NCBI GenBank assembly: GCA_027493095.1
Contig: JAPVXD010000198.1
Location: forward strand, 30,253-94,252
DNA length: 64,000 bases
Source: Candidatus Multivorans azotirespirans
GTDB lineage: Bacteria > Acidobacteriota > Thermoanaerobaculia > Multivoradales > Multivoraceae
Direction: 5' to 3'
Position 1 is the first letter of the stretch; every line of letters begins with the position of its first letter. The translations under genes and the position numbers were made by a program. The notes beneath the pieces are model-generated. The model was not told where the DNA came from, did no database searches, and saw nothing but the letters and a program-made list of their open reading frames with translations. This document shows, in pieces, positions 5,271 through 64,000 of the stretch.

Positions 5271-5948
5271 TCAGCCGCTGAGCATCTTCTCCCTGCGCTC
5301 GGCGCGGGTGAACGTGAGGGCGACGATCGCCGCGATCGCGAGGGCGGTGCCGATGCGATTCTGAACGTTCAGCGCGAGCATCTGCGCCGCGTCCGCCTCT
5401 TCCACGGCGAGCGGGTTCCAGAACGGTGAGACGCGGAACGAACCGAACAGCCGGTTGAGGCCGAGGACGCCGATCGTGGCGAGGGAGCCGGCCACGTCGC
5501 TGCGGAACAGGGTCGCGAAGCCCATGGCGGCAACGAGGTAGAAGACGACTCCCTGCGTCGCGCCGTACAGGCCCTGGAGAATCGGGAATTCCGTGAAGAA
5601 GGCATAAGTCACGCCGGCGAGGAGGACCAGGCTGACCAGGAGCATCAGGATCGCGGCGGCGAGCTTGCCGAGCCAGACCCGATGGGCGCCTCCGGGAACG
5701 GTGTAGGCAATCTCGAGGCTGTGCTGATCGAGTTCGCCTGTGATGATCCGGCCGCCCAGGAAGATCGCGAGCACGGCTACCGGTACGCCGATCAGGCTGT
5801 TCTGCGCCGCCGCCGGCTCCAGGGCAGGTCGCATGCCGGCTACCAGCATGAGGGCCTGTACTACGAGCCACACCAGCGGCAGCAAGGGCAGCAGCCAGTA
5901 CCGGCGTCCGCCAAGCAACACCGCCGAGGTGCGAAGCAGCGTGATCAT
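5271..5948 (-). CDS. Polytopic membrane protein, probable ABC-2-type permease partner of the upstream nucleotide-binding domain
   Basis: 225 aa with ~6 predicted TM helices. Its ATG overlaps the stop of the RND-ABC fusion ORF (ATGA), implying translational coupling. Confidence 0.55.
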   Translation of the reverse strand: MITLLRTSAVLLGGRRYWLLPLLPLVWLVVQALMLVAGMRPALEPAAAQNSLIGVPVAVLAIFLGGRIITGELDQHSLEIAYTVPGGAHRVWLGKLAAAILMLLVSLVLLAGVTYAFFTEFPILQGLYGATQGVVFYLVAAMGFATLFRSDVAGSLATIGVLGLNRLFGSFRVSPFWNPLAVEEADAAQMLALNVQNRIGTALAIAAIVALTFTRAERREKMLSG

Positions 5949-10762: not shown

Positions 10763-10775
10763 GGCGCGTTCCGGT

Positions 10776-13958: not shown

Positions 13959-13985
13959 GGTTGCCCGACCTCCCGGCGGGCGGCG

Positions 13986-48532: not shown

Positions 48533-51001
48533 GTGTTCGAGAAGTACAACGAGAAGTCGCGCCGCGCACTCTTCTTCGCCCGCTACGAGGCGAGCAAACT
48601 GGGAAGTCGGGTCATCGAGTCGGAGCACATCCTGCTCGGCATCCTGCGCGAGGGAGAGGAGTCGATCATCGAGCTCTTCCAGCGCCTCCAGGTCAAGCCG
48701 GAGGATCTCCGCCGCGAGATAGAGGGCGAGCGAGTGTTCGTCGAGCGCATCTCGTCGACCGCCGAGCTGCCGTTGTCGGAGGAGTCGAAGAGGATACTGG
48801 CCCACGCCTCGCACGAGGCGGAGAGCATGGTTCATGCCGCGGTCGGCTCCGAGCATCTGTTGATCGGCATCATGCGGGTCGACGGCTGTCTGGCCCAGCG
48901 CGTTCTCGCGGAGCGCGGACTCGAGGTTGCGACGGTGCGCGAACAGGTCGCAACCATCGCTCGCGAGCGCGCCAGCAGGCGCGGCAAACAGGAGTTGCCC
49001 TTCCTGACGGAGTTCGGCCGCGACCTGACCGCGCTCGCGCAGCAGGACCAGTTCGACCCCCTGATCGGCCGCGAACAGGAAGTCGGTCGTATCGTCCAGA
49101 TCCTCGCGCGACGGACGAAGAACAACCCCATCCTGCTCGGGGAACCGGGGGTGGGCAAGACGGCCATCGTCGAGGGACTGGCGCAACGGGTGTCTCAAGG
49201 CCGCGTGCCGAAGTTCCTCGGGCGCAAGCGGATCGTCGCGCTCGACCTGTCCCTGATCGTGGCCGGCACGAAGTACAGGGGGCAGTTCGAAGAGCGCCTG
49301 AAGGGCATTCTCAAGGAGCTCGAGGAAGGCGAGGACGTGCTCGTCTTCATCGACGAGATCCACGCTCTGGTCGGAGCCGGTTCGGCCGAGGGTTCCCTCG
49401 ACGCCGCGAACATCCTGAAGCCCGCCCTGTCGCGGGGCGACATCGCGTGCATCGGCGCCACGACCCTGCGCGAGTACCGCCGGCACATCGAGAAGGACCG
49501 CTCCCTGCTGCGGCGGTTCCAGGCGGTACAGATCAAGCCGCCCTCCGCGGACGAGACCTACGACATCCTGGTCGGCCTGAAGGAGCGTTACCAGGGTTTC
49601 CACAACGTCGCCTACGACGACGCCGCGCTGCGCGCCGCGATCGCCGGTTCCAACCGCTACATCCCCGACCGTCATCAGCCCGACAAGTCGATCGACGTGA
49701 TCGACGAAGCCGGCGCCCGGGTCAAGCTGCGCCGGGTACGGGATACCAGGCAGGCGCGGCGGATCGAGCAGGAGATCCGGGAAGTGGTGGCCGAGATGAA
49801 GGCGGCGATCTCGGACAAGGACTTCGACCGCGCCGTCCGCTTCCGAGAGCGCGAGATCGAACTCCGGGAAGATCTCGAGAGCATCGAGCAGTTGCATGAC
49901 CAGGACGTTGAGGATCAGGTCGTGACCGCTCAGGACGTGGAGGAGGTGATCGCCTCCTGGACAGGGGTGCCGGTGGCTGCCGTGCGTGGCGACGAGGCGA
50001 AGCGGCTGATGAAGATGGAGGACGTTCTGCGTCGCCGGATCGTCGGCCAGGATCGGGCGATCCGGTCGATCAGCCGCGCCATCCGCCGGTCGCGGCTCGG
50101 CGTTTCCGATCCCCGTCGTCCGGTCGGTTCGTTCGTCTTCCTGGGCCCGAGCGGTGTCGGCAAGACGGAGGTCGCCCGGCGCCTCGCCGAGTTCCTGTTC
50201 GGCAGCCAGACCGCTCTCATGCGTTTCGACATGAGCGAGTACATGGAGAAGTACTCGGCCTCCAAGCTGATCGGTTCGCCGCCGGGCTACGTCGGCTACG
50301 AGGAGGGCGGCCAGTTGACGGAGCGGGTTCGGCGCCAGCCTTACTCCCTGATCCTCTTCGACGAGATTGAGAAGGCGCACCCGGACATCATGAACCTGTT
50401 GCTTCAGATCCTGGAGGAAGGCAGTCTGACCGACGCCTACGGCAACTACGTCGATTTCCGGCACGCCCTGGTGCTGCTGACGTCCAACCTGGGCAGCAAG
50501 CTGGTGCTCAAGGGTGGACGCGTGGGCTTTGGCGGGGCGTCTTCGGCAGGAGACTCTTCCCCAGAGGGGGACTTCGGGCGCGTCAGGGAAGAGATCGAAG
50601 CGGAGTTGCGCCGCAGCTTCAGCCCCGAATTCATCAACCGCATCGACGAGACGATCGTGTTCAATCCGCTGGGCCGGGAGGAGCTGCGCGCGATCACGTG
50701 CCTCCTGCTTTCCGACGTGAACGAGACGCTTGCCGAGCGCGGTCTGACCGTCGAGGTGACCAGTGAAGCGCGGGAATGGCTGCTGGAGCAGGCAGGCATC
50801 GATCCGTCGACCGGGGCCCGTCCGTTGCGGCGCACGATCCAGCGTTACGTCCAGGATGCGGTGTCGGACCTGCTGATCCAGCGAACCGGCGATTCCGTCG
50901 AACGCATCCGTGTGGATCTCGCGCGGGACGAACTGGTCCTGGAGGTCGTTCAAGACGCCGCCCCGACCGTTGAGGAGGAACCTGCTCTTGCGGAATCCTG
51001 A
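48533..51001 (+). CDS. clpC: ATP-dependent Clp protease ATP-binding subunit (ClpC/ClpA family, two AAA+ modules)
   Basis: Duplicated Clp N-domain repeats, two Walker A boxes ([19 protein letters not shown]) and sensor motifs, 822 aa. Confidence 0.85.
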
Positions 51002-51011
51002 TCGAAAGGTT

Positions 51012-53723
51012 TTGCGACGGCTGGCATGGCCGGGGGCGCTGGTCGCCGCCTTCCTGCTGGCCGTGCCGGCCGCCGGCCAGTTGTTGGTCGGCCAGCCGAT
51101 CGTGTCGGTGGAGTACGCCGGCGTCGAGACGCTGAGCGAAGACAGCCTGAGCTACTACCTGGATATCGAAACCGGGAAGCCCTGGGATCCCGGCCGCGTG
51201 AACGACCGGATCAAGGATCTCTGGGAGCGCAAGCTGATCGATGACATCTCGATCGCGGCCGAGGCGCAGGGCGAAGGCGTGCTGGTCCGGGTGACGGTCG
51301 TGGAAAGGCCGCTCCTGGTCTCGCTCGAGTACGACGGTCTGAAGAAGGTGAAACGGAGCGACATCGGCGACATGACGGACCGGGAGCGGATCTCGGTCTT
51401 CGAGGGCCTGCCGCTGGACCTGGGCGAACTGGCGCGCCTCGAAGAGGCGATCAAGAAGCTCTACGAGGAGCGCGGCTTCCGGTTCGCGGGTATCCACGTC
51501 GAGATCCAGGACGCGGGTCTGGGCGAGAAGCGGGTGCTGATCACCGTCGACGAGGGCGGGAGGGTCAAGATCGGCCAGGTCGATTTCGAGGGCAACGAGG
51601 TGTTCTCCGCCGGCCGCCTGCGCCGCCAGATGGAGAAGACGAAGAAGTCGAACCTCCTGACCCGGATCCGCAAGCGCGACGTGTTCAACTCGGCGACGGT
51701 CCAGGAGGACCTCGACAAGGTCAAGGGCCTGTACCGCCAGTTCGGCTACAAGGACGTCGAGGTCGGCGAGCCCGAGCTCGACGTGATCGAGCGGAAGCCG
51801 AACGCCGATCGCATCGAGGACCGCAAACGGCAGCTCGCCCTGGTGATTCCGATCGAGGAGGGCCCGCGCTGGAAGCTGGGCGAGGTCCAGGTCGAGGGGG
51901 CCGAGGTTCTGCCCGAGGGTCTGCTGGTCGCGATGTTCAAGGATCCAAAAGGGGGCTGGCTGCGCTCGGACGTCATCGACGAGGGTGTCGAGCAGGTCGG
52001 GGAGCTGTATCGGAACAGCGGTTACATCTTCGCCGACGTGAAGATGGAGGTCATCGAGCGCGATGACCTGATTGCCGACATCCTGGTGACGGTCGAGGAG
52101 AACGACCAGTTCCGGATCGGGCGGATGGAGTTCACCGGCAACGACCGGACGCGTGACCGGGTGCTCCGCCGCCAGATGCTGCTCAAGGAAGGCGACGTCT
52201 TTAACTCGGGCATGCTGCGCACCAGCCTGTTGCGGCTCAGCCAGCTCGAGTACTACGTGGTCAACGAGGACGATCCGGTCGAGGTCGACTACGACACGGA
52301 CGACAAGCAGGTCGACATCACCGTCAAGGGCACGGAGACCGGCCAGACCGAGGTCCAGTTCGGCGGCGGCTACAGCGAGCTCGACGGCTTCTTCGTCCAG
52401 TCGGCGTTGCGCACCCGCAACTTCCTGGGCCGCGGCGAGACCGTCGGCGTGTCGATCCAGACGGGCCGCTACCGCGACATCTTCGATGTCTCGTACTACA
52501 TGCCCTGGGTCAAGGACCGTCCCCAGAACTTCGGGATTCAGCTCTTCAACCGGGACACGGACTTCGACCTCCTGATCGACCAGCGCTACCGAAGCAAGGA
52601 GGCCGGCGGCGTCCTGAGCTACGGCCGCTCGTTCCGTCGCTGGGAACTCGTGCAGTTGGCCTACAGCAACATGGACATCGAGAGCTACCAGTCGCAGACG
52701 TTCTACTTCTTCGACAACCCGGAACAGAGCGACGACCCGATGAGCGACACGTTCGAGCAGGCGTTCGAGTTCAACCGCCGCTCGGTCACGGCCACCTACC
52801 AGTTCGACAGTCACAACAGCCGTCTCGAGCCGACCCAGGGCAAGCGCCTGGTCGCATCCCTCGAGTACGCCGGCGGCCCCCTTGGCGGCGAGTCCTTCTT
52901 CATCCGCCCGTCGCTGAACGCGGCGATCACCGTGCCGCTGACGAACCGCGGGCTGCGGACGGTGGGGCGGGCGAACATCCAGCTCGGCTACATCCAGCCG
53001 TTCGGGGAAGACGGCGCGGGCAACGTGCGCGAGTTGTTCTTCCTCGACCGCTACCTGCTGGGCGGCGAGAACAGCCTCCGCGGCTTCGCGTTCCGTTCCA
53101 TCTGGGTGCGTGATCCGGAAACCGGCCGCACTCTTCTCGACCGGAACGGCTTCCCCCAGGGCGGCAACAAGAGCGTGGTGATCAACCTCGAGCACCACAC
53201 CCTGGTCAACGGTCCTTTCCGCGTCGTGACCTTCTTCGACGCCGGCAATGTCTACGGCGACGACCAGGACGTCGACTTCAACCACATGCGCATGTCGGCC
53301 GGAATCGAGCTTCGGGTCAACGTGCCCATCCTTGGAGCTCCGCTCCGCTTCATCTACGCTACGAACCTGAATCCGCTGGACAACCTCGGAGGCGTCGACC
53401 GGGAGCGGTTCAACGATGGTCGGCTGACCTTTGCCGAGGACCGTCTGGCCGAAATGGAGAAGCAGCTCGAGGACATGACGATCGACCTGCGGCGCGCCCA
53501 GGACGACGCGAACCGCGAAATGCAGAAGGTGCAGGGCGAGAGGTTCGGCGAGATCGAACAGGCGGTACTGCCGATCATCTCCCAGGTCGGCCGGGAGTTC
53601 GGCTACACGGCGATCTTCAACAAGTTCCAGGGGGGCCTGCTGTTCGCCGCCGACGCTGCGGACATCACGAACCTGATCATCGAGCGCTACAACGCCGCGT
53701 ACCCGGCCACTCCCGCGGAGTAG
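51012..53723 (+). CDS. bamA: Outer membrane protein assembly factor BamA (POTRA repeats + 16-strand barrel) with an in-frame C-terminal Skp/OmpH-like extension
   Basis: Signal peptide after a putative TTG start (start uncertain), POTRA repeats and barrel ending ...GIELRVNVPILGAPLRFIYATNLNPL. The ORF then continues ~120 aa (…LEDMTIDLRRAQDDANREMQKVQGERFGEIEQAVLPIISQVGREFGYTAIFNKFQGGLLFAADAADITNLIIERYNAAY), which aligns with the C-terminal half of OmpH/Skp chaperones. Confidence 0.8.
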   Translation: MRRLAWPGALVAAFLLAVPAAGQLLVGQPIVSVEYAGVETLSEDSLSYYLDIETGKPWDPGRVNDRIKDLWERKLIDDISIAAEAQGEGVLVRVTVVERPLLVSLEYDGLKKVKRSDIGDMTDRERISVFEGLPLDLGELARLEEAIKKLYEERGFRFAGIHVEIQDAGLGEKRVLITVDEGGRVKIGQVDFEGNEVFSAGRLRRQMEKTKKSNLLTRIRKRDVFNSATVQEDLDKVKGLYRQFGYKDVEVGEPELDVIERKPNADRIEDRKRQLALVIPIEEGPRWKLGEVQVEGAEVLPEGLLVAMFKDPKGGWLRSDVIDEGVEQVGELYRNSGYIFADVKMEVIERDDLIADILVTVEENDQFRIGRMEFTGNDRTRDRVLRRQMLLKEGDVFNSGMLRTSLLRLSQLEYYVVNEDDPVEVDYDTDDKQVDITVKGTETGQTEVQFGGGYSELDGFFVQSALRTRNFLGRGETVGVSIQTGRYRDIFDVSYYMPWVKDRPQNFGIQLFNRDTDFDLLIDQRYRSKEAGGVLSYGRSFRRWELVQLAYSNMDIESYQSQTFYFFDNPEQSDDPMSDTFEQAFEFNRRSVTATYQFDSHNSRLEPTQGKRLVASLEYAGGPLGGESFFIRPSLNAAITVPLTNRGLRTVGRANIQLGYIQPFGEDGAGNVRELFFLDRYLLGGENSLRGFAFRSIWVRDPETGRTLLDRNGFPQGGNKSVVINLEHHTLVNGPFRVVTFFDAGNVYGDDQDVDFNHMRMSAGIELRVNVPILGAPLRFIYATNLNPLDNLGGVDRERFNDGRLTFAEDRLAEMEKQLEDMTIDLRRAQDDANREMQKVQGERFGEIEQAVLPIISQVGREFGYTAIFNKFQGGLLFAADAADITNLIIERYNAAYPATPAE

Positions 53724-53833
53724 CCCGCGAGTAGCGCGGCGACTGGGTGCGCCGGCGTCCCCGCCGGCATGTAACCGCGGGTCTTCTGACCCGCGGACAA
53801 CACGCGCCGCGGAGCGGCGACCGCTTTGCCGCG
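53724..53833. repeat. REP-like intergenic repeat, locus B, with a bidirectional terminator-like hairpin
   Basis: Core ACTGGGTGCGCCGGCGTCCCCGCCGGC at 53742-53768; hairpin CCGCGGGTCTTCTGACCCGCGG at 53775-53796; outer inverted repeat GCGAGTAGCGCGGCG/CGCCGCGCTACTCGC overlapping both flanking stop codons. Confidence 0.6.
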
Positions 53834-55219
53834 CTACTCGCTGCTGCGGATGCTGTAAAGCTTCGACCGGGTGCGAATCAGCAGCCGGTCGCCAGCGACC
53901 GCCGGCGACGCCATCGCCATCTCGTCGAGGCTGTTGGTGTGGAGCACTTCGTACTCCGAGCCGGCGCGGATCACATAGGTGTCGCCCTGCTCGCTCAGCG
54001 CGAACACGCGGTCGTTGTAGGCCCAGGGAGATGAGGTGAAGCTGGCGCCGCCGCGGGGCGCCACGCGCTTCCGGCCGTACACCGGTTCGCCGGTCAGCGC
54101 GTCGTACGCCTCGAAGAAGCCGCGGTCCAGCAGGCTGTAGTAGACGCCCTTGTAGACCAGCGGCGACGTGTTGTAGTTGCCTGCCTTGGGCTGGTGCCAG
54201 GCGACGAACTCGCTCTCCGTCGCGTCACCTTCCAGGGTGATGTCGCCCAGCGCCCCCGGACGGATGGCGAAGACCGGCCGACGCTGATCCTGGAAGTAGC
54301 CGGAGTTGACGTAGATCATGTTGTGAGCCGCGAACGGCGTCGCAATGGCCGCCCAGGACATGCGGCCGTCCATCTCCCACAGCAGTTGGCCGTCCAGGCC
54401 GTACGAGCGGATCCGGTTCTTGCCGCTGGTGACGATCTCGGTGCGGGCTTCGTTGGACCATACGAAGGGCGTTGCCCAGCTCGACACCTCTTCCCGACTC
54501 GTGCGCCAGCGCTGTTCGCCGGTGTGCTTGTCGAGCGCGGCGATCCAGGACTCTTCCTCGTTGTCGTAGAGGATGATCAGCAGGTCGTCGTGCAGCACGG
54601 GCGAGGAGGCGGAGCCGTAGTCCCACATGGTCGGGCGGTAGGGCGTGTCGAAGCTCCACACGGACTCGCCTTCCATCGTGAAGGCGTAGACGCCGAGGTC
54701 GCCAAAGCGCGCATAGACACGTTCGCCGTCGGTCGTCGGCGTCTCCGAGGCGTAGGTCTGCTTCTGGTGGCGCGGGAACTCGGGTATGCCGGCCTTGACC
54801 GAGCGCTCCCACAGCACCTCGCCCGTGGCCAGGTCCAGGCAGTACACGAGCCAGTCGTGCTGCGCCTGCGGCGGTTCACTGCGCCCGCGGGCGGCGTAGA
54901 GACCGGCCTGTGGACGCTCGAACTCGCCTTCGGAAACCGCGGTCGTCAGGTACACCCGATTGCCCCATACGATCGGGCTGGACCAGCCGAGCCCGGGGAT
55001 CTCGACGACCCACTCGACATTCTCGGTCTGGCTCCAGCGATCCGGCAGGGCGGGGTTGTCGGCGACGGCCGGGTTCATGCCCGGGCCGCGGAACTGGGGC
55101 CAGTTGTCGGACGCGGCTGCCCCGCCGGCGCAGAGCGCGGCGCAAGCGAGGGCGGCGAGGATGACGGCGAGATTGGGCCTGGAGTGGTGGCGGTGCAGGT
55201 GCGATGTCGCGTTGCTCAT
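53834..55219 (-). CDS. PQQ-like beta-propeller repeat protein (paralog of 26000..27421), secreted
   Basis: Signal peptide with cysteine, then repeated PQQ/BamB-like blades (NWPQFRGPG..., GNRVYLTT..., LDLATGEVLWE...). Confidence 0.7.
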   Translation of the reverse strand: MSNATSHLHRHHSRPNLAVILAALACAALCAGGAAASDNWPQFRGPGMNPAVADNPALPDRWSQTENVEWVVEIPGLGWSSPIVWGNRVYLTTAVSEGEFERPQAGLYAARGRSEPPQAQHDWLVYCLDLATGEVLWERSVKAGIPEFPRHQKQTYASETPTTDGERVYARFGDLGVYAFTMEGESVWSFDTPYRPTMWDYGSASSPVLHDDLLIILYDNEEESWIAALDKHTGEQRWRTSREEVSSWATPFVWSNEARTEIVTSGKNRIRSYGLDGQLLWEMDGRMSWAAIATPFAAHNMIYVNSGYFQDQRRPVFAIRPGALGDITLEGDATESEFVAWHQPKAGNYNTSPLVYKGVYYSLLDRGFFEAYDALTGEPVYGRKRVAPRGGASFTSSPWAYNDRVFALSEQGDTYVIRAGSEYEVLHTNSLDEMAMASPAVAGDRLLIRTRSKLYSIRSSE

Positions 55220-55295
55220 CGAGATCGGATCTCCCGGTCACTGGAAGGGGTCAGAGGTTGGGGTCGTGCGGCATGGTATCCGGTAGGCTCGCTCC

Positions 55296-56132
55296 GTGAC
55301 CCACCGCCTCGCCGATCTTGCCGCGATGGTTGGAGCTGACCTCGAGGGCGATCCGGATCGGCCGATCGACGGCATCGCCCGGGTCGACCCCGCCGCCCGC
55401 GTCGACGCTTTCGCGGTGGTCGGCGAGGGCTCGACGCTCGGCCCGGGCGTGGTCATCGGCGCCCACTCGGTGGTGGGCCGGGGCTGCCGCCTGGGCGCAG
55501 GCACCGTGCTCCATCCCCATGTCGTGGTCTACGACGGTGCCCGCGTCGGCGAGCGGGTGGTCGTTCACTCCGGTGTCGTTCTGGGCGCCGACGGTTTCGG
55601 GTTCGCGGAGGGCGCGGAAGGAGCGGCCCAGGTCAAGCTGCCTCAGGTCGGCGTCGTCGTGATCGAGGACGACGTGGAGATCGGCGCCAACTCCGCGGTG
55701 GACCGGGCCACCTTCGACACCACCACGATCGGTCGCGGAACGAAGATCGACAACCTGGTGCAGATCGGCCACAACGCGCAGATCGGCCAGGGATGCATCC
55801 TCTGCGGTCAGGCCGGCGTGTCCGGCAGCAGCCGCATCGGTGATCGGGTGCTTCTGGCGGGGCAGGTAGGCGTCGCCGGTCACTTCAGGATCGGCGACGG
55901 CGTGCAGGTGGCGGCCAAGTCGGCGGTGTTCCAGGAGGTCGAGGAGGACCAGCGTGTCGCGGGCATTCCCGCCGTACCAATCGCGGCCTGGCGCCGGCGT
56001 AACGCGCTACAGTCGCGCCTGCCGGCGATGCGCAGCGCGCTCAGGGCGCTCGAGCGACGTGTGGGGGAACTCGAATCGGCGGGTCGCGATGGCCGCAACG
56101 ATTCGGCGGCGGACGGGGGAGACGAGACGTGA
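55296..56132 (+). CDS. lpxD: UDP-3-O-acylglucosamine N-acyltransferase LpxD (short N-terminal domain)
   Basis: Left-handed beta-helix hexapeptide repeats and an LpxD-like N-terminus (LADLAAMVGADLEGDPDRPIDGIA). 278 aa versus ~340 typical. GTGA overlap with fabZ. Confidence 0.8.
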   Translation: MTHRLADLAAMVGADLEGDPDRPIDGIARVDPAARVDAFAVVGEGSTLGPGVVIGAHSVVGRGCRLGAGTVLHPHVVVYDGARVGERVVVHSGVVLGADGFGFAEGAEGAAQVKLPQVGVVVIEDDVEIGANSAVDRATFDTTTIGRGTKIDNLVQIGHNAQIGQGCILCGQAGVSGSSRIGDRVLLAGQVGVAGHFRIGDGVQVAAKSAVFQEVEEDQRVAGIPAVPIAAWRRRNALQSRLPAMRSALRALERRVGELESAGRDGRNDSAADGGDET

Positions 56133-56614
56133 GCAAGGAACGGGAGGAGATCGACGGCGCCGCCGTGAGTGCGCCGCTCGGACCGTTCGACTCGCGCTGG
56201 ATCGCGAGCGTACTGCCGCACCGCTACCCGATCCTCCTGGTCGACCGGGTGCTGGAGCTGGTGCCGGGGAAGCGGGTGGTGGCGATCAAGAACGTGACCC
56301 GGAACGAGCCGTTCTTCGACGGCCACTTCCCGGGGAATCCGATCATGCCCGGAGTCCTGGTGATCGAGGCGATGGCGCAGACGGCGGGCCTGCTGCTGCT
56401 GCACGAGATCGAGGACCGGGACCGCCGGGTTCTCTTCTTTTCCGGGATCGAGCGGGCCCGCTTCCGCCGTCCCGTCGTTCCCGGCGATCAACTGCGGATG
56501 GAAGTGGAGTCGCTTCGCCTGCGCACCGTCCACTCCCGCTTCCGGGGCCGGGCCACGGTCGACGGGGAGCTGGCGGTGGAGGCGGTCTGCACCTCCACGA
56601 TGGTGGCGCCCTGA
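56129..56614 (+). CDS. fabZ: 3-hydroxyacyl-ACP dehydratase FabZ
   Basis: Hotdog-fold motifs LPHRYPILLVDRV...FFDGHFPGNPIMPGVL. Confidence 0.9.
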   Translation: MSKEREEIDGAAVSAPLGPFDSRWIASVLPHRYPILLVDRVLELVPGKRVVAIKNVTRNEPFFDGHFPGNPIMPGVLVIEAMAQTAGLLLLHEIEDRDRRVLFFSGIERARFRRPVVPGDQLRMEVESLRLRTVHSRFRGRATVDGELAVEAVCTSTMVAP

Positions 56615-56639
56615 AGGACCGCGGACCGCGGCGCGGCTC

Positions 56640-57452
56640 ATGACGGCGAGGATCCACGACACGGCGATCGTCGATCGCTCGGCCGAGCTGGGCGACGGCG
56701 TGGTCGTCGGCGCCTACGCGGTGATCGGGTCCGGCGTTCAGATCGGCGACGACACGGAGATCAGCTCGCACGCGACGATCCTCGGCGACACGGTCATGGG
56801 ACGGGCCAACCGGGTCTTCCCCTACGCCGCGATCGGATTCGACCCGCAGGACCTCAAGTACGAGGGCGAGTCGAGCCGGCTCGTGATCGGCGACGGCAAC
56901 CAGTTCCGCGAGTTCTCGACGATCAACCGGGGTACCGCGTTCGGCGGCGGCATCACGCGGATCGGCGACGACAACCTGTTCATGACGCAGACCCACGTCG
57001 GCCACGACAGTCAGGTCGGCAGCCGAACGGTGTTCACGAACGGCGGCACCCTGGCCGGCCACGTGGAGGTCGAGGACGACGCCACGATCGGTGCCTTCTC
57101 GGCGGTCCACCAGTTCTGTCGGGTGGGTCGGCATGCCTACATCGGCGGCTACTCCGTGATCACGATGGACGCGCTGCCGTTCTGCATCACGGTGGGGATC
57201 AAGCCGGCCTGCATGGGCGTGAACCGCATCGGACTCGAGCGCAAGGGCAAGTCGGCGGAGGACATCCGATCGATCGAGAGGGCCGTGCGGGTGCTCACCC
57301 GCTCGCGGAGGAACACGACCCAGGCGCTGGAGGAGCTCGACGCCGAGCATGCCGGCCACGCGGACGTCGATGCCCTGATCGCCTTCATCAGGAGTTCCGA
57401 CCGGGGCTTCATCCGCTCGGCGCGGCGCGGTTCCCGCGGCGCCCGCTCGTGA
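56640..57452 (+). CDS. lpxA: Acyl-ACP--UDP-N-acetylglucosamine O-acyltransferase LpxA
   Basis: IHDTAIVD... hexapeptide repeats and the C-terminal helical domain, ~270 aa. Confidence 0.9.
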   Translation: MTARIHDTAIVDRSAELGDGVVVGAYAVIGSGVQIGDDTEISSHATILGDTVMGRANRVFPYAAIGFDPQDLKYEGESSRLVIGDGNQFREFSTINRGTAFGGGITRIGDDNLFMTQTHVGHDSQVGSRTVFTNGGTLAGHVEVEDDATIGAFSAVHQFCRVGRHAYIGGYSVITMDALPFCITVGIKPACMGVNRIGLERKGKSAEDIRSIERAVRVLTRSRRNTTQALEELDAEHAGHADVDALIAFIRSSDRGFIRSARRGSRGARS

Positions 57453-57468
57453 AGGACGGGAGTTCGCC

Positions 57469-58455
57469 CTGAGCGCGGAAGCTCAGGTTCGGGCCGCCGT
57501 CGTCGGCGCCGGCGCGATGGGACGCCACCACGTCCGTCTGCTGTCTCGCCTGCTGGGGCCCGACTCGGTGTTCGTGGTCGACGCGGATCCGGCGCGGGCG
57601 GAACACGCCGCGCTCGAGCATGGGGCGTCGGTCGCGGCCGGGATCGACGAGGTCCTGAACGCGGTGGACGTCGCCGTCGTCGCCGTGCCGACGGTCGACC
57701 ACCTGGAGGTTTCGGCGCGTCTGATCGAGGCCGATGTTCACGTGCTGGTGGAGAAGCCGATCGCGGCGGATCTCGACCTGGCGGATGCCATGATCGCGGC
57801 GGCTGCGTCGCGCGGCGTCGTCCTGGCGGTGGGGCATGTCGAGTTCTACAATCCGGCCGTTCAGCAAGTGCTGGCGCTGGGGCTCGAGCCCCGCTTCGTC
57901 GAAGTCGAACGGATGTCGCCGTTCAGCCCGCGCAGCCTGGATGTGGACGTTGTCCTTGACCTGATGATTCACGACCTGCAGATCCTCCACGCCCTCGACC
58001 CGAGTCCGGTGCGAGAGGTGCGGGCCGTGGGGATCGACGTCCTTTCGGACCGGGTCGACATCGCCGACGCGCGGATCGAACTCGAGTCCGGTTGCGTGGC
58101 GAACCTGACCGCTTCCCGCGTCTCGGCCGACCGCGTGCGCCAGTTGCGGGTCTTCTTCGAGGATCGCTACTTCTCGCTCGACTACCAGAAGCAGACGGTG
58201 CGGGGGGCGCGGCGCGTGCGCGGTGAAGAGAACGCGCCCGGCGGAGACTCCGTGTCCGCCGGCGGGCCGGCGGGCCGGATCCTCGCCGCCGATCTCGAGG
58301 TCGACGGCGGCGAGCCGCTGCGGCTCGAGCTCGAGGGGTTTCTCGACCGCTGTGCCGGCGGCGGGGCGCCGTTCGTCGACGGCGCGGCGGGCCGGCGGGC
58401 GCTGGAGACGGCCCTGCTCGTGAACTCGACGATAGCCGGGAGCGCCGGCGCATGA
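57469..58455 (+). CDS. Gfo/Idh/MocA family NAD(P)-dependent oxidoreductase (possible GnnA-like UDP-GlcNAc 3-dehydrogenase); apparent non-canonical CTG start
   Basis: Rossmann loop VVGAGAMGRHH lies upstream of the first in-frame ATG (57517), so the start must be earlier. The only plausible in-frame start is CTG at 57469, preceded by GGGAG 6 nt upstream. ATGA overlap with mtnP at the 3' end. Confidence 0.6.
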   Translation: MSAEAQVRAAVVGAGAMGRHHVRLLSRLLGPDSVFVVDADPARAEHAALEHGASVAAGIDEVLNAVDVAVVAVPTVDHLEVSARLIEADVHVLVEKPIAADLDLADAMIAAAASRGVVLAVGHVEFYNPAVQQVLALGLEPRFVEVERMSPFSPRSLDVDVVLDLMIHDLQILHALDPSPVREVRAVGIDVLSDRVDIADARIELESGCVANLTASRVSADRVRQLRVFFEDRYFSLDYQKQTVRGARRVRGEENAPGGDSVSAGGPAGRILAADLEVDGGEPLRLELEGFLDRCAGGGAPFVDGAAGRRALETALLVNSTIAGSAGA

Positions 58456-59345
58456 GCGTTGACACTTACCCGATCGGGATCATCGGCGGCTCCGGTCTCT
58501 ACGGCATGGAGGAGCTCGACGTTCACGAGGAACGGGCGATCGCGACGCCGTTCGGAAGTCCGTCGGAGGTCTTCGTGCTCGGTGAACTCAGGGGCCGCCC
58601 CGTCGCCTTCCTGGCCCGGCACGGCCGCGGTCACCGCATCCTGCCCAGCGAACTGAACTTCCGCGCCAACATTTTTGCCTTCAAGAGCCTGGGCGTGGAG
58701 CGGCTGATCTCGCTCTCCGCGGTCGGCTCGCTGCGGCGGCGCTACCAGCCGACCCACATCGTGGTGCCGGACCAGTTCATCGACCGCACGCGGCACCGTC
58801 CGGATACTTTCTTCGGTAACGGGCTGGCGGCCCACGTCGCCTTCGCCGATCCGATCTGTCCGCTGCTGATGGAGGTCTGCGCCGACCAGGCGGCCGCGGC
58901 CGGCGCGGTGGTCCATCGCGGCGGAATCTACGTGTGCATGGAGGGGCCTCAGTTCTCGACTCGCGCCGAGTCCTTCATGCACAGGAGTTGGGGCGCGGAC
59001 GTGATCGGAATGACGAACCTGCAGGAGGCCAAGCTCGCCCGCGAGGCGGAGATCTGCTACGCGACCCTGGCCCTCATTACGGACTACGACTGCTGGCACG
59101 AGGAGGAAGAGGACGTGACGGTCGAGGCCGTGCTCGCGGTCCTGCGGCAGAACGCGCGCACCGCCCAGGCCGCGGTTGCCAGGATCGTCGAGTCCTTGCC
59201 GGAAGAGCGCCGGCCCGGAGCGTGTCCCTGCATCAATGCGCTGGAGCACGCCCTGATCACCGATCCGGCGGTCGTTCCGGCGTCCGTTCTGCGCGATCTG
59301 GCGCCGATTGTCGGTCGCCTACTCGGCAACGGTCGCGACCGATGA
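58452..59345 (+). CDS. mtnP: S-methyl-5'-thioadenosine phosphorylase
   Basis: IGIIGGSGLY...PSE..FRAN motifs of the MTAP/PNP family, 297 aa. Confidence 0.85.
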   Translation: MSVDTYPIGIIGGSGLYGMEELDVHEERAIATPFGSPSEVFVLGELRGRPVAFLARHGRGHRILPSELNFRANIFAFKSLGVERLISLSAVGSLRRRYQPTHIVVPDQFIDRTRHRPDTFFGNGLAAHVAFADPICPLLMEVCADQAAAAGAVVHRGGIYVCMEGPQFSTRAESFMHRSWGADVIGMTNLQEAKLAREAEICYATLALITDYDCWHEEEEDVTVEAVLAVLRQNARTAQAAVARIVESLPEERRPGACPCINALEHALITDPAVVPASVLRDLAPIVGRLLGNGRDR

Positions 59346-60124
59346 GTGCCGCCAGACTTCTCCTGACGAATGACGACGGCGTTGACGCGCCGGGTCTGCG
59401 CAGCCTCGCCGCGGCGCTCGACGGAGCGTCGACCGCCAGGGGACCGATCACCTACGATGTGGTGGCCCCGGAGCGCGAGCAAAGCGGTTGCAGCCAGGCG
59501 CTGACCCTGTTCCGGCCGCTGCGCGCGAAGCGGGTGCGGGAGGGCTGGTTCGCGGTGGACGGGACGCCCTCCGATTGCGTCAACCTGGCGGTTCACTCGC
59601 TGCTGGAGCAGCGTCCCGATCTGCTCGTGTCGGGGGTCAACATGGGGGTCAACCTGGGTGACGACGTGACCCACAGCGGCACGGTGGGCGCGGCGCTCGA
59701 GGGACGGCTCGCAGGCGTGCCGGCAGTCGCGTTCTCCCAGGAGTACCGGAAGGCCCGCCGCGCCGACATGGAACGCGCCGCGGCGCTGGCCGCCCGGGCG
59801 ATCGTCTCGCTCGTCGAGCAGGGAATTCCCGAGCGCCTGCTGCTCAACGTGAACTTCCCGTTCGACCCGCCCCGCGGGGTCAGGGTCGCGCGACTCGGCC
59901 GGCGGCCCTACCGCAACACGGTCGTCGAACAGGCGGATCCGCGGGGCGGCACGATGTACTGGATCGTCGGCAAGCCGGACCCGGAGCGCCGGCAAGACAC
60001 GGATGCGGCCGCGATCAGGGACGGCTTCATCTCGATCACGCCGCTTACCGCCGACCTGACCGACGGCGAGTCGCTCGACGCCGGCGACGGATTTCTGCCT
60101 GGTCTCGCGGGAGCCCTGGGTTGA
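59342..60124 (+). CDS. surE: 5'/3'-nucleotidase SurE
   Basis: LLLTNDDGVDAPGL N-terminus with a DD metal site and GxNxG motif. ATGA overlap with mtnP. Confidence 0.9.
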   Translation: MSAARLLLTNDDGVDAPGLRSLAAALDGASTARGPITYDVVAPEREQSGCSQALTLFRPLRAKRVREGWFAVDGTPSDCVNLAVHSLLEQRPDLLVSGVNMGVNLGDDVTHSGTVGAALEGRLAGVPAVAFSQEYRKARRADMERAAALAARAIVSLVEQGIPERLLLNVNFPFDPPRGVRVARLGRRPYRNTVVEQADPRGGTMYWIVGKPDPERRQDTDAAAIRDGFISITPLTADLTDGESLDAGDGFLPGLAGALG

Positions 60125-60174
60125 AGACGGAAACGGCCGGTCCGGGCGGTGGATACCCCTACGCCCGCCGCCGC

Positions 60175-60810
60175 ATGGTGGCGAACCTGGTCGAACGCGG
60201 CGGTCTGCGGGACGAGCGGGTGATCGCCGCTTTCGAGCGGGTGCCGCGCCACCTGTTCGTGCCCGAGCATCTGGTCAATGACGCGTATGGCGACCACGCG
60301 CTACCGATCGGTTGCGAGCAGACGATCTCCCAGCCCTACGTGGTGGCGCGCATGACCGAGGATCTGGGCGTGCGGGAGGACGACTCCGTGCTGGAGATCG
60401 GCACCGGCTCCGGCTACCAGACGGCGATCCTCGCTTTGCTGGCGCACCGGATCTACAGCATTGAGCGGGTGGGCCGGTTGGCGCGCGAGGCGATCGGCCG
60501 GATCCAGGCCCTCGAGCTGCCGAACGTCAAGGTTCAGGTCTTCGACGGCACGGTCGGCTGGAGCGCCGAAGCCCCATTCGACCGGATCCTCGTGGCCGCC
60601 GCCGCGCCGCGAGTTCCGGACTCACTCCTCGAACAACTGGCGCCGGGCGGGCGTCTTGTGATCCCTGAGGGCGACCGCCACGAACAGCGCCTGGTCGCCT
60701 ACGAGAAGCACGACAACGGCACCGTCGCTCGCGAGCTCGGCGAAGCGGTGCGCTTCGTGCCGCTGATCGGCCGTCACGGTTGGAAGACGAAGGCCGAGGC
60801 GGCCCAGTAA
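60175..60810 (+). CDS. pcm: Protein-L-isoaspartate O-methyltransferase
   Basis: SAM-binding motif VLEIGTGSGYQTA and the C-terminal LV.PEG motif. ATG at 60175 fits the family N-terminus; a TTG at 60121 is also in frame. Confidence 0.9.
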   Translation: MVANLVERGGLRDERVIAAFERVPRHLFVPEHLVNDAYGDHALPIGCEQTISQPYVVARMTEDLGVREDDSVLEIGTGSGYQTAILALLAHRIYSIERVGRLAREAIGRIQALELPNVKVQVFDGTVGWSAEAPFDRILVAAAAPRVPDSLLEQLAPGGRLVIPEGDRHEQRLVAYEKHDNGTVARELGEAVRFVPLIGRHGWKTKAEAAQ

Positions 60811-60825
60811 CGCGGAGGGGCGGAC

Positions 60826-61377
60826 ATGAGGGATGATCCGGCCGGGGCCAAGGATCCGGCGAAGTGGCTGAAGGAACGGATCCGCGAAGTTCCCGACTTT
60901 CCGAAACCGGGCATTCTGTACAAGGACATCACGACGCTGCTCAAGGACCCGGCGGCGCTGCGCGAGACCGCCGACCGGCTCGCGGAGCGGTTCGCCGGCC
61001 GGCGCATCGAGCAGGTGGTGGGAATCGAGGCGCGGGGCTTCATCTTCGGTCCCCTCGTGGCGAACCGGCTGAACGTGGGTTTCGTGCCCGTGCGCAAACC
61101 GGGGAAGCTGCCGGCCGAGACGGCTTCGCGCAGCTACGAGCTCGAGTACGGCCGCGACACCCTGGAGGTGCATCTCGACGGCGTCGCCGGTGGCGAGCGC
61201 GTCGTCCTGGTCGACGACCTGCTGGCGACGGGCGGCACCGCGAAGGCGGCGGCGGAGCTCATCGAGTCCGTCGGCGGAACGGTCGACGCGATCGGATTCG
61301 TCGTCGAGTTGACCTACCTGGACGGCCGCCGCCGGCTCGATGGATACGACGTGGTTGAATCCCTGGTCCGATACTGA
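60826..61377 (+). CDS. apt: Adenine phosphoribosyltransferase
   Basis: PRPP motif [14 protein letters not shown], 183 aa. Confidence 0.9.
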
Positions 61378-61412
61378 GATCCTTCGACGGTCGTCGCGGC
61401 GGCGGTTCCAGA

Positions 61413-61489
61413 GCGCCTGTAGCTCAGCCGGATAGAGCGGCGGATTCCTAATCCGCAGGTCGGAGGTTCGAGTCCTCCCAGGCGCACCA
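61413..61489 (+). tRNA. tRNA-Arg (anticodon CCT)
   Basis: Cloverleaf drawn by hand: acceptor GCGCCTG/CAGGCGC, anticodon stem GCGGA/TCCGC with loop TTCCTAA, T-arm GGTTCGAGTCC, encoded CCA end. Confidence 0.9.
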
Positions 61490-61510
61490 CAAACGCGCCG
61501 CGCCTCGCTA

Positions 61511-61696
61511 CTACTCTTCGATCTCGCGCTTGGGCTTGTCCTCGGCCTCGTCCTCGTCCGGTCCCTTCAGGCCCTGCTTGAAGTTGCGGATGCCGCTGCC
61601 CAGGCCGCCCGCCAGCTTCGGAATGCGGCTGGCGCCGAAGATCAGGACGACGATCGCGAGAACGATCAGGAGTTCGCCGAATCCCAGGGTGGGCAT
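61511..61696 (-). CDS. tatA: Sec-independent translocase component TatA/E
   Basis: 61 aa: MPTLGFGELLIVLAIVVLIFGASRIPKLAGGLG, an N-terminal TM, amphipathic helix and acidic tail. Confidence 0.85.
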   Translation of the reverse strand: MPTLGFGELLIVLAIVVLIFGASRIPKLAGGLGSGIRNFKQGLKGPDEDEAEDKPKREIEE

Positions 61697-61787
61697 CTTG
61701 AGTGCTCCAGTGGTTTGTTTAGCCGGCCCCCTTCGCTGCCGGGGCCGTTGGCCAAGTCTGCCACACGGTCGCTCGAGTCGCGGGCAT

Positions 61788-61945
61788 GCCGTTCTGGCTT
61801 GCATGGAACCGGCCGCCCGACAAGGAGCCGGCCTTGCGGCCGGCGCGTCTCCCTGGCCGCCTTCGGCGGCAGCCGGCGGGGACGCCGGCGCACCCAGTGG
61901 GCGGCCAGTTCCATGCAAGCCCGCGCTGCGAAGACGCAGCGCGGG
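61788..61945. repeat. REP/MITE-like element, locus C (inverted copy of the core, flanked by 13-bp inverted repeats, plus a GC hairpin)
   Basis: Outer inverted repeats GCTTGCATGGAAC (61788-61800) and GTTCCATGCAAGC (61908-61920); core GCCGGCGGGGACGCCGGCGCACCCAGT (61872-61898) is the reverse complement of the locus A/B core; hairpin CCCGCGCTGCG-AAGAC-GCAGCGCGGG at 61920-61945. Confidence 0.6.
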
Positions 61946-61979
61946 CTGCTAGGGTTCGCCGCGTCGGAGGAGATGCGGA

Positions 61980-62828
61980 ATGAGCCGGTTGACACGAGAC
62001 GAGATACGGCGCGACGAGGTTCGGGAGGCTGTCTTTTCGGCTTCCACGTGGTTCGCGGAGCATGTTCGACAGATCCTGATGGGCGTCGTCGCGGTGATCG
62101 CCGTGGTCGTCGGAGCCGTGCTGTTCCTGAACTACCAGGATGGCCGGGAGAAGGAGGCCAGCTACCAGCTCAGCGCGGCCCTGAAGGTCTACCGGGCGCC
62201 GATCGACGCGCCGGCGACGGACGCAATCGACGACCTGTTCGGTACGCCTCCCGACAGCGCCCCGGAGGAAAGCGTCGTGGAAGAGGCGGAGGCGCCGGAT
62301 GCCGGGAGCGAAACCGGCGGCAACGGCCTGAGCTTCGCCTCGGAGGCGGAGCGGCGCTCGGCGGCGAGGACGGAACTCGAGGCCGTGAGGGAGAGCTACG
62401 GCTCGACCTCGTCCGGCCGGCTGGCTTCCGTCTACCTCGGGCAGATCGCGGCGGCTGAAGGGGATACCGCGAAGGCGCGGGAGCTGTGGACGAGTTACCT
62501 GGAGGCCGCCGGCCGCGATCACGCGATCGCCATCGGCGTGCAGTTGAACCTCTACAGCCTGGATCGGGCCGAGGGGCGGGGCGAGGAACTGGCCGCCACG
62601 CTGCGCGGCGCGGTGGCGGCCGAATCGTCGCCGCTGCCGAAGGACGCCCTGCTGTTCGAGTTGGCCGCCACCCTGGCGCAACTCGGCGACGAAGAGGGTG
62701 CCCGGGAGACCTTCCAGCGGGTGGTCAACGAGTTCCCGGACAGCGGCTACGCGATCCGCGCCCGGCAGCAGCTCGGAGCTCGCCGCCTTCCTGATGGCCG
62801 CCGCGATGCGAGGGCTCGACCGGGATGA
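61980..62828 (+). CDS. YfgM-like membrane-anchored TPR-like protein (ancillary SecYEG translocon subunit family)
   Basis: GGAGG RBS and an N-terminal TM (ILMGVVAVIAVVVGAVLFLNY) followed by an Ala/Leu-rich helical repeat region. Its last ~45 codons are read in a different frame by the downstream phosphorylase gene. Confidence 0.5.
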   Translation: MSRLTRDEIRRDEVREAVFSASTWFAEHVRQILMGVVAVIAVVVGAVLFLNYQDGREKEASYQLSAALKVYRAPIDAPATDAIDDLFGTPPDSAPEESVVEEAEAPDAGSETGGNGLSFASEAERRSAARTELEAVRESYGSTSSGRLASVYLGQIAAAEGDTAKARELWTSYLEAAGRDHAIAIGVQLNLYSLDRAEGRGEELAATLRGAVAAESSPLPKDALLFELAATLAQLGDEEGARETFQRVVNEFPDSGYAIRARQQLGARRLPDGRRDARARPG

Positions 62829-63930
62829 AACGCGGGAGCTGACCCTGGCGATGCTCGAGTCCGGCGACCAGTGGGCCCTGGCGAAGGACTTCGGTCCCCT
62901 GGTCGACAAGCACTCCACCGGCGGCGTCGGCGACACGGTCAGTCTGATCGCTTTGCCGCTGCTGGCCTCCTGCGGCGTACCGGCGGCCAAGCTGACGGGC
63001 CGGGCCCTGGGGCACAGCGGCGGCACCGCCGACAAGCTCGAGAGCATCCCCGGCGTCCGCCTGGAGCTCGACCGCGCCGGCACCCTCGACCTGCTGGACC
63101 GCTTCGGCATGGCGATCGGCATCGCCACCGCCGGCATCGCACCCGCCGACAAACGTCTTTACGGCCTGCGGGATCGCACCTCGACCGTGAGTTCCATTCC
63201 CCTCGTCGTCGGCAGCATTCTGTCCAAGAAACTGGCGCTCGGAGCGTCCGGGATCGTGTTCGACGTGAAGAGCGGTAACGGCGCCTTCTTCCCCGACGCG
63301 CGCGACACGCGCTCGCTGGCCTCGAGCCTCGTCGAGATCAGCGCCGCTTGCGGCACGCCGGCCGACTACGTCCTGAGCGACATGAACCAGCCCCTGGGTC
63401 GCTGGGTTGGCCACGCGGCCGAAGTGAGGGAAGCGCTGGATTGCCTCGCCGGCGACGGCGACCCGCGGTTGCTCGAGGTGGTGACCGCGATCTGCGGCAA
63501 GGCTGCCCGCCTGGTAGGAAAGAAACTCCTGCCGCGGGAGATCGAGGCTGCGATCGCTTCCGGCGACGCCCGGCAGAAGCTCCTCGACTGGGCCGACGCG
63601 CAGGGCGCCAGGTCCGGCTGGGTCGACTCCCTCGACCTGGCGCCGGTCGAAGCCGTCGTCACCGCCTCCGGGTCGGGGTTCCTCGCAGCCGTCGACTGCC
63701 GCCGTATCGGCAACGCCTTCGCCAACGCGTGCCGCCCGAACCGGGACCCGAACAGCATCGACCACGCCGTCGCGCTCCGCTACGACGTCCGGCTTGGCCA
63801 GAAAGTGGAACGCGGCCAGGAACTGGCGCGCCTCTACGTGCGCCGCGATCCTGAACCGCTGCAGCGCGAGGTCGCCGCGGCGCTCGTCATCGGTGACCAG
63901 ATCGAAGCGCCCCCGCCGGTAGTGGAGTAG
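62794..63930 (+). CDS. Thymidine/pyrimidine-nucleoside phosphorylase family protein, apparently lacking the first N-terminal helix (5' end overlaps the yfgM-like gene)
   Basis: Homology starts at AAFLMAAAMRGLDRDETRELTLAML...DKHSTGGVGD...GHSGGTADKLESIPG. The in-frame stretch upstream to the GTG at 62698 reads as Ser/Thr/Arg-rich off-frame-like sequence. Start is set at the ATG at 62794 (uncertain). Confidence 0.75.
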   Translation: MAAAMRGLDRDETRELTLAMLESGDQWALAKDFGPLVDKHSTGGVGDTVSLIALPLLASCGVPAAKLTGRALGHSGGTADKLESIPGVRLELDRAGTLDLLDRFGMAIGIATAGIAPADKRLYGLRDRTSTVSSIPLVVGSILSKKLALGASGIVFDVKSGNGAFFPDARDTRSLASSLVEISAACGTPADYVLSDMNQPLGRWVGHAAEVREALDCLAGDGDPRLLEVVTAICGKAARLVGKKLLPREIEAAIASGDARQKLLDWADAQGARSGWVDSLDLAPVEAVVTASGSGFLAAVDCRRIGNAFANACRPNRDPNSIDHAVALRYDVRLGQKVERGQELARLYVRRDPEPLQREVAAALVIGDQIEAPPPVVE

Positions 63931-64000
63931 CGGGGAACCGACGACGGGTGTCACTCGCCTCGCTACACTGCCGCCGGTGAAGGCTTCGATTCTCGCGGTC

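Follow-up and report, generated by a model that had tools for sequence, protein, structure and literature searches.

A fused bamA–skp reading frame associated with a 298-nt deletion in a single deposited 'Ca. Multivorans' contig

The reading frame that joins bamA to skp in this 'Ca. Multivorans' contig did not evolve as a gene for a BamA–Skp protein, and most likely reflects an assembly or consensus error in one deposited record. We find that a deletion with exact boundaries removes the last strand of the BamA barrel (β16) and the N-terminal half of Skp, and that this deletion is absent from the relatives and from contigs of the identical strain. An error is favoured because the window, by which we mean the whole 64,000-nt stretch of DNA analysed here, carries three blunt deletions within 9.4 kb of otherwise base-identical sequence.

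The fused reading frame and the 298-nt deletion

The chimeric ORF lies on the forward strand (50988..53723, 911 aa from a TTG at 50988) and consists of BamA lacking its last 11 residues followed by Skp residues 82-183. Its longest possible form begins at a GTG (50910..53723, 937 aa); the TTG is preferred as the start since it agrees with the gene call of the relatives' bamA. From either start the frame continues past BamA to 53723 without a stop, as the original prediction had stated. The whole protein scores 427.7 bits against the BamA profile TIGR03303, above the curated equivalog cut-off of 297.15, and POTRA repeats are present (PF07244 at four stretches, plus POTRA_2). The tail had been described as Skp/OmpH-like and as the C-terminal half of Skp only. 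Both descriptions are borne out: PF03938 is matched with E = 7.6e-13 and 49.3 bits, or 53.7 bits by the tail on its own, against a gathering score of 32.4, and residues 844-926 correspond to profile positions 59-140 of 141. No separate skp is found between bamA and lpxD within the window, and the 911-aa protein (P0271) is on record from a single NCBI contig of 118,067 nt only.

The normal order of this locus is clpC-like, bamA (819 aa), a 22-nt spacer, skp (183 aa), a PQQ propeller gene on the opposite strand, lpxD, fabZ and lpxA. In every relative skp stands on its own and encodes a secreted protein. In gene order and content the window resembles the canonical bamA–skp(ompH)–lpxD–fabZ–lpxA cluster, with bamA (TIGR03303) followed by OmpH-family sequence, yet it lacks the 298 nt that hold the 3' end of bamA, the spacer and the 5' half of skp, and the two genes form one ORF. 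The clade as a whole also departs from the canonical cluster in having a PQQ_2/BamB-like propeller gene, oppositely oriented, between skp and lpxD. In the window this β-propeller gene is intact (53834..55219, reverse strand, 461 aa) and in the position kept in relatives, and it served as the anchor for locating contigs of the identical strain.

The deletion junction, J1 (53411..53412, forward strand), marks 298 nt that are absent in comparison with every relative. The missing segment comprises the last 11 residues of BamA (DSFDFSIGTSF), the stop codon, the spacer and Skp residues 1-81, and its loss happens to bring bamA into frame with skp from codon 82 on. The breakpoint has a 1-nt ambiguity (C), and in bamA and skp alike it lies between two codons (TTC/AAC). 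Its ends share no 7-mer or longer word within ±40 nt, the deleted segment is 66.8% GC, and 43 relatives all agree at the boundary bases. The original prediction had offered, as its second option, a deletion taking out the stop codon of bamA along with the beginning of skp, and this option is the correct one, as the 298 nt are missing relative both to the relatives and to the identical contigs.

Could the fusion nevertheless be natural and functional, with a chaperone arm tethered to the insertase? The uninterrupted ORF with its significant OmpH match, and a reading frame kept exactly at codon boundaries, are what such a protein would show. The comparison with relatives speaks otherwise. We searched 46 GTDB genomes of sponge-type Acidobacteriota (Thermoanaerobaculia, 'Ca. 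Multivorans') with a 207-aa query spanning the junction. Both halves of the query are matched in 39 of the 46, spread over 892-928 nt rather than 621 nt, the other seven match one half only, and the J1 junction is carried by none. At the relatives' loci L001-L008, bamA (819 aa) and skp (183 aa) are always separate. All homologues of the tail are free-standing OmpH proteins of ~183 aa, all homologues of the barrel end are BamA proteins ending ...DRERFDSFDFSIGTSF, no match spans both halves, and the fusion occurs in 0 of 64 close homologues. Likewise, when 1.84 billion representative proteins were scanned in full by HMMER with a query across J1, not one of the best 150 matched both halves. The junction peptide DRERFNDGRLT, searched as a degenerate pattern, was not found in the genome contig collection; it was also unmatched in metagenome contigs, a weak result given that a 24-mer surely present in one of the identical-strain contigs (L055) went unmatched there as well. 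A literature search for BamA/Skp fusion proteins found nothing relevant. Alignment with relatives thus refutes the natural fusion that had been proposed, by a check which the original prediction itself had named, because their skp genes are separate, and with the fusion missing from all 46 related genomes and from 100% identical contigs we give this explanation almost no credence.

Missing parts of BamA and Skp

The bamA portion (50988..53411, forward strand) encodes the POTRA repeats and the Omp85 barrel up to ...DNLGGVDRERF, without the β16 sequence DSFDFSIGTSF and without a stop codon. Up to base 53411 it is 100% identical to four contigs of the identical strain (L055, L067, L068 and L069). 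The barrel had been thought to end in the expected last-strand motif (...GAPLRFIYATNLNPL), but the profile matches stop early: the Omp85 profile is covered over positions 1-311 of 325, against 1-325 in the intact 819-aa orthologue, and TIGR03303 over 3-724 of 741, against 3-741. Alignment to E. coli BamA (7bnq_A) pairs GAPLRFIYATNL with the 11-residue stretch that precedes the last strand, which is probably β15, and on the same chain (810 residues) the missing FDSFDFSIGT(SF) pairs with the C-terminal AEQFQFNIGK(TW). Given that I806 and G807 of E. coli BamA are described as β16 residues (PMC8655018), the C-terminal end of 7bnq_A is β16, and therefore the true last strand is absent in the window. 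Obtaining this alignment required a 380-aa barrel query; a 235-aa C-terminal fragment searched against the PDB with phmmer reached only Sam50, with the C-terminus uncovered.

The E. coli BamA barrel (PDB 7bnq, 5d0o) has 16 strands, with the lateral gate between β1 and β16. The intact orthologue aligns with it over residues 750-808, including the AEQFQFNIGK(TW) strand. Unlike it, the protein of the window ceases to match after the loop that follows ...GAPLRFIYATNL, and Skp helix sequence stands in place of the FDFSIGTSF strand and its C-terminal aromatic. By profile coverage and by this alignment, the BamA of the window lacks a complete 16-strand barrel closed by an aromatic-ended β16, which stands against a working fusion, as does the finding that none of the best 150 representatives matches both halves.

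The loss of β16 also bears on where the tail would lie. The original prediction had assigned it to the periplasmic mouth of the assembly machine, and since the deletion takes β16 this topological argument fails. In the 16-stranded Omp85 barrel, with its alternating-strand topology, the end of β15 should lie on the extracellular side. Without β16 the chain would leave the barrel there, so that the tail of a natural fusion would be expected to exit at the extracellular end of β15 and not in the periplasm.

The skp (ompH) portion (53412..53723, forward strand) comprises codons 82-183 and the stop. Its product agrees fully with the final 102 residues of the 183-aa Skp that contig L055 encodes intact, and is also identical to P0002. 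It keeps the hairpin tip, the returning helix, the C-terminal strands and the short helix. In an AF2 model of the intact protein, which has a helix at 39-83, a turn at 84-88, a second helix at 89-142 and a strand at 147-150, the J1 cut at residue 82 falls at the hairpin tip. The N-terminal strands had rightly been noted as missing; with residues 1-81 deleted, the signal peptide and the outgoing helix are gone too, and MNVKTPGLRTAAATAAVVAGVLMVGPALAQ lies within the lost 298 nt, leaving this Skp without a signal peptide of its own. In accordance, the intact Skp of relatives covers OmpH positions 1-140 of 141, against 59-140 only for the tail. The tail thus resembles Skp/OmpH proteins (PF03938; solved chains 9nhx and 9yjt) in being residues 82-183 of the clade's Skp and in scoring above the Pfam threshold, and differs from them in lacking the signal peptide, the N-terminal strand and the outgoing hairpin helix. 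In established Skp structures the N-terminal elements contribute to the core of the trimer and to half of every arm. Therefore the tail, lacking that strand and that helix, is without the elements for both, and a chaperone arm deprived of everything N-terminal to the hairpin tip is a further point against a natural fusion.

Neighbouring deletions and contigs of the identical strain

J1 is one of three blunt deletions within 9.4 kb, the others being J2 (255 nt, in lpxD) and J3 (169 nt, at the boundary between a TPR gene and a thymidine-phosphorylase gene), neither of which the original prediction had noticed. In lpxD (55296..56132, forward strand), 255 nt are lost in frame between 55379 and 55380, with a 4-nt microhomology (CGCC). 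The resulting LpxD has 278 aa against 363 aa when intact and has lost its N-terminal domain (PF04613); it covers only positions 105-322 of TIGR01853, short of a full LpxD, against 1-322 plus PF04613 in the intact orthologue. J3, between 62776 and 62777 and with a microhomology of 0, removes the last 14 codons and the stop of the TPR_21 gene (61980..62828, forward strand), which now runs out of frame into the next gene and encodes 282 aa against 279 aa. The next gene, of the thymidine-phosphorylase family (PF02885 and PF00591; 62777..64000, forward strand, running off the window end), loses its first 38 codons; the intact gene, in L063, encodes 421 aa. Like the chimera, the 278-aa LpxD (P0242) and the 282-aa TPR_21 product (P0272) are recorded solely from the NCBI contig of 118,067 nt. 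The damage to lpxD and two more genes, as severe as that to bamA and skp, counts against a natural fusion, and the closeness of the deletions suggests a defect of the particular record rather than biology.

Outside the three deletions, the window is 100.000% identical to JGI and Logan contigs, with 0 mismatches and 0 gaps; the sole differences lie between 53411 and 53412 (−298 nt), 55379 and 55380 (−255 nt), and 62776 and 62777 (−169 nt). Identical contigs assembled independently from JGI 3300009927, JGI 3300009930 and Logan SRR22392485 carry bamA and skp as separate genes. The J1 site is crossed intact by JGI Ga0131734_100483, JGI Ga0131742_100006 and Logan SRR22392485_3158, the J2 site by Logan SRR22392483_4342 and JGI Ga0131742_100340, and the J3 site by JGI Ga0131734_100025. 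The last base of JGI contig Ga0131742_100340 (L064) lies exactly at window position 62776, the left edge of J3.

Assembly error or private allele

In an erroneous record, segments would have been dropped where sequence pieces were joined into the NCBI MAG contig of 118,067 nt, which comes from a sponge-type Acidobacteriota population, and one clean loss of 298 nt would create the fused ORF. If translated, the chimera would be missing β16, with which the BamA barrel closes and the lateral gate is formed, and would bring half a Skp protomer; it would work neither as BamA nor as Skp. The window resembles chimeric ORFs produced by deletions and joins in MAGs in that the fusion occurs in one record and is contradicted by independent assemblies, and in that the junctions are blunt and the lesions clustered, one of them precisely where a contig of another assembly stops. 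On the other hand, the deletion ends carry no repeats, and J1 bears no clear mark of a strain bubble.

Several routes to such losses were considered. Microhomology at J1, J2 and J3 amounts to 1, 4 and 0 nt. Repeat-mediated collapse or slippage was rejected, with no shared 7-mers at J1 or J2, one 7-mer near J3 and microhomology of 0-4 nt, and so was GC-driven coverage dropout, the deleted segments being 66-72% GC, like their flanks. A dropped strain-variable bubble is unsupported for J1 and J2: other stretches vary more than the deleted ones, and the bases bordering J1 are the same in all 43 relatives. For J3 a bubble is still plausible because the first deleted base is polymorphic (C/T) and the contig of another assembly ends there.

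Alternatively, the deletions could be a real and very recent private allele of a cell lineage or subpopulation of the symbiont, arisen by illegitimate recombination. Such an allele, present in some cells, would be a loss of function for both bamA and skp, and would persist only for a time or be buffered by polyploidy or complementation. Junctions that are blunt or show 1-4 nt of microhomology are also typical of illegitimate recombination in real genomes. The reading frame is kept by two of the three deletions, mildly above chance (1 in 9), and this might point to selection acting on real alleles. That L064 ends at J3 may just as well mark a genuine branch at the level of the reads, with a real deletion variant beside the intact one, and the altered sequence is that of the public deposited record, beyond the window alone. 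Against this, three deletions would stand beside zero substitutions in 64 kb of the same population, and bamA and lpxD, both essential in model diderms, would have been struck jointly in a single haplotype. In two runs, Logan contigs cross J1 and J2 on the intact allele, unbroken. Moreover, a consensus assembly should give the majority allele, and a majority without β16 and without the N-terminal domain of LpxD would hardly be viable. We therefore regard a private allele as unlikely, though it is to be taken seriously, and consider an error in the record the probable cause.

That all three deletions are genuine on one haplotype of a sponge-symbiont subpopulation, some of whose cells would then have both a BamAΔβ16–Skp(82-183) chimera and an LpxD truncated at its N-terminus, seems very improbable. 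If such a haplotype were true, it might be tolerated by virtue of genome polyploidy or complementation, or the decay of outer-membrane biogenesis might be underway. The chimera might be dominant-negative or degraded, and even as the product of a real allele it would be expected to function neither as BamA nor as Skp.

A conserved BamA–Skp fusion, had it existed, would have been a natural experiment on the handover of clients from chaperone to BAM. The fusion is instead not conserved, and is a record-specific lesion that destroys the lateral-gate strand. It calls for caution: three or more silent deletions, each of ~170-300 nt, are present in the deposited contig and give a fused BamA–Skp, a truncated LpxD and two more damaged genes, and surveys of domain architecture that took the combination of PF01103 with PF03938 from the NCBI record would be misled.

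A reading frame joining bamA to skp

The window carries a single uninterrupted plus-strand reading frame that runs from BamA into part of Skp. At its longest it extends from GTG 50910 to the stop codon at 53721-53723 (937 aa); from the start used in the relatives' gene call, TTG 50988, it encodes 911 aa. This chimera scores 427.7 bits against the BamA model TIGR03303 (cut-off 297), and Pfam finds in it four POTRA domains, Omp85 at residues 504-825 and OmpH (PF03938) at residues 844-926, the last scoring 49.3 bits (gathering score 32.4) over profile positions 59-140 of 141. The original prediction that no stop separates the barrel from the tail, and that the tail represents Skp's C-terminal half, is thus borne out, and the resemblance is not one of chance. 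No free-standing skp lies downstream of the chimera in the window, where a propeller gene, lpxD, fabZ and lpxA come next. Upstream, a ClpC/ClpB-like AAA+ gene (48533-51001) overlaps bamA, ending 14 nt past the TTG start; the same overlap is seen in relatives (clpC-like 1079-3532 and bamA 3519-5978 in locus L002).

Compared with the JGI reference contig L055 (3300009930, Ga0131734_100483), exactly 298 nt are missing from the window between 53411 and 53412, a breakpoint uncertain by a single C. This junction, J1, falls on a codon boundary of both genes (...CGG TTC, then AAC GAT...), and the missing segment comprises BamA residues DSFDFSIGTSF with the stop codon, a 22-nt spacer and Skp residues 1-81. 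Since bamA and skp lie in different frames and 298 is not a multiple of three, the deletion puts them in one frame. Of the two origins proposed initially, a deletion of the bamA stop and the 5' part of skp proves correct; a natural fusion is refuted, since skp is separate in relatives.

bamA and skp in relatives

A 207-aa query spanning the junction, searched against 5.8 billion protein clusters, returned matches of two kinds only, BamA C-termini on its first half and free-standing OmpH proteins (~183 aa, up to 96% identical) on its second, and no protein spanning both. Likewise, a HMMER search of 1.84 billion representative proteins with the junction-spanning query gave 1003 hits, and each of the best 150 matches one half alone, be it barrel or Skp. 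BamA of relatives ends in ...NLNPLDNLGGVDRERFDSFDFSIGTSF before its stop codon and their Skp reads M...LAALQQQYNDGRLTFAEDRLAEMEKQ..., while the window's junction peptide reads ...GGVDRERF followed by NDGRLTFAEDRL.... Gene order in the NCBI, ENA and JGI loci is clpC-like, bamA (819 aa), skp (183 aa), a PQQ propeller on the opposite strand, lpxD (363 aa), fabZ and lpxA. A scan of GTDB species representatives yielded 46 loci from Thermoanaerobaculia, Holophagales and 'Candidatus Multivorans' MAGs, many with isolate names pointing to sponge projects. In 39 of them both query halves match, spread over 892-928 nt as against 621 nt, and the extra ~298 nt are therefore present there; in the other seven a single half matches. 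Exact copies of the intact Skp sequence occur on 13 contigs of JGI, Logan and ENA data sets. By score the chimera qualifies as both BamA and OmpH, but as a fusion family, with conservation as the sole criterion, it fails; a functional, maintained BamA-Skp fusion is essentially excluded.

The locus is the ordinary bamA-skp-lpxD-fabZ-lpxA cluster, into which a propeller gene specific to the clade has been inserted. This PQQ_2/BamB-like β-propeller gene (53834-55219, minus strand) encodes 461 aa that begin with a hydrophobic leader; in all relatives examined it likewise separates skp from lpxD and is read from the opposite strand. OmpH-like segments are also found within larger proteins of 420-660 aa (P0084, P0100, P0108, P0141, P0082, P0167, P0187), some with three such stretches and none together with a BamA barrel; they may represent true fusions or repeats of OmpH in other lineages. 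In a 99% identical locus, L008 (ENA ERZ23492521 scaffold_63), small indels in positions 1-2523 split skp into ORFs of 53 and 111 aa and fragment bamA, an assembly error of another kind at the same locus.

What remains of BamA and Skp

The last strand of the BamA barrel, β16, closes it against β1 and forms the lateral gate; its C-terminal residue is aromatic, as is typical of outer-membrane β-signals. The original prediction took the strand that ends the window's barrel for this last one. That identification does not hold: the Omp85 profile is covered at 1-311 of 325 positions (1-325 in the intact orthologue), TIGR03303 at 3-724 of 741 (3-741 in the intact orthologue), and the β16 segment is missing. 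In an alignment to E. coli BamA (7bnq_A), ...MSAGIELRVNVPILGAPLRFIYATNL... lies opposite a 24-residue E. coli stretch and FDSFDFSIGT opposite AEQFQFNIGK, residues ~799-808. One study (PMC8655018) places E. coli I806 and G807 in β16 at the lateral seam and describes a G431C/G807C cross-link as blocking growth. Because the missing segment aligns to these residues, the window's BamA lacks β16. Strands of a 16-stranded barrel alternate in direction, so that the chain would leave β15 at the extracellular face and the Skp-like tail would lie elsewhere than in the periplasm, where it had been placed.

Intact Skp matches OmpH positions 1-140 of 141. An AlphaFold2 model of a near-identical intact Skp (P0002), built from a 52-sequence alignment (mean pLDDT 67, helices 85-92), comprises a signal peptide (1-31), a strand (33-36), a helix (39-83), a turn (84-88), a second helix (89-142), a strand (147-150) and a last helix (166-176). 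On this model the cut at residue 82 lies where the helical hairpin turns. What precedes it, from signal peptide through N-terminal strand to outgoing helix, is gone, while the returning helix and the C-terminal elements remain in the tail. The chimera lacks a defining structural feature of each family: for BamA the complete barrel with β16, for Skp an entire OmpH domain headed by a signal peptide.

Two further deletions and the public record

Comparison with the loci used for J1 reveals two further clean deletions. J2, between 55379 and 55380 in lpxD (55296-56132), lacks 255 nt in frame with 4-nt microhomology, yielding an LpxD of 278 rather than 363 aa without the N-terminal domain PF04613; all relatives and the identical-strain contigs retain the segment. 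J3, between 62776 and 62777 in the TPR_21 and thymidine-phosphorylase-family genes (61980-64000), lacks 169 nt and is blunt, with no microhomology. Lost here are the final 14 codons and stop of the TPR_21 gene, the spacer, and 38 codons from the start of the thymidine-phosphorylase-family gene, and the frame is not kept. Nearby, ~150 intergenic nt at 61794-61945 are shared with same-strain contigs L056 and L063; GTDB relatives have ~4 nt there.

Same-strain contigs were obtained through exact-protein look-ups. Window stretches 1-15948, 9789-31267 and 28670-49839 are 100.000% identical, gap-free, to JGI Ga0131742_100006 and Ga0131734_100017; for 49470-53411, 53412-55379, 55380-62776 and 62777-64000 identity to JGI and Logan contigs is 100%, a figure that leaves out a few mismatches from BLAST extension across the junctions. 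As all stretches between junctions are identical, the three deletions are the only differences across the 64 kb, all within the last 10.6 kb. Identical contigs run intact through J1 (JGI Ga0131734_100483 and Ga0131742_100006, Logan SRR22392485_3158), J2 (Logan SRR22392483_4342, JGI Ga0131742_100340) and J3 (JGI Ga0131734_100025). In a 15-billion-protein collection, the 911-aa chimera (P0271), the 278-aa LpxD (P0242) and the 282-aa TPR protein (P0272) all trace to the same lone NCBI contig, 118,067 nt long; the window therefore faithfully copies the public record, to which the deletions belong.

Are the deletions a real allele? We favour an assembly or consensus artefact as the probable explanation, because there are three deletions and zero substitutions against the same population, all three strike conserved genes, two of them essential in model diderms, and several independent data sets assemble the intact allele without a break. 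In addition, J3 begins at the exact last base of JGI contig L064 (Ga0131742_100340), as would be expected for pieces abutted at a graph break. That contig end could also stem from a true branch in the reads, and blunt junctions fit real illegitimate recombination as well; a real, private, loss-of-function haplotype is nonetheless the distinctly less likely reading. None of the features examined points to a mechanism: the deletion ends show no repeats, GC content is ordinary, other stretches vary more than the deleted segments, and the bases bounding J1 do not vary among 43 relatives. The chimera's chief use is as a warning about this NCBI record.
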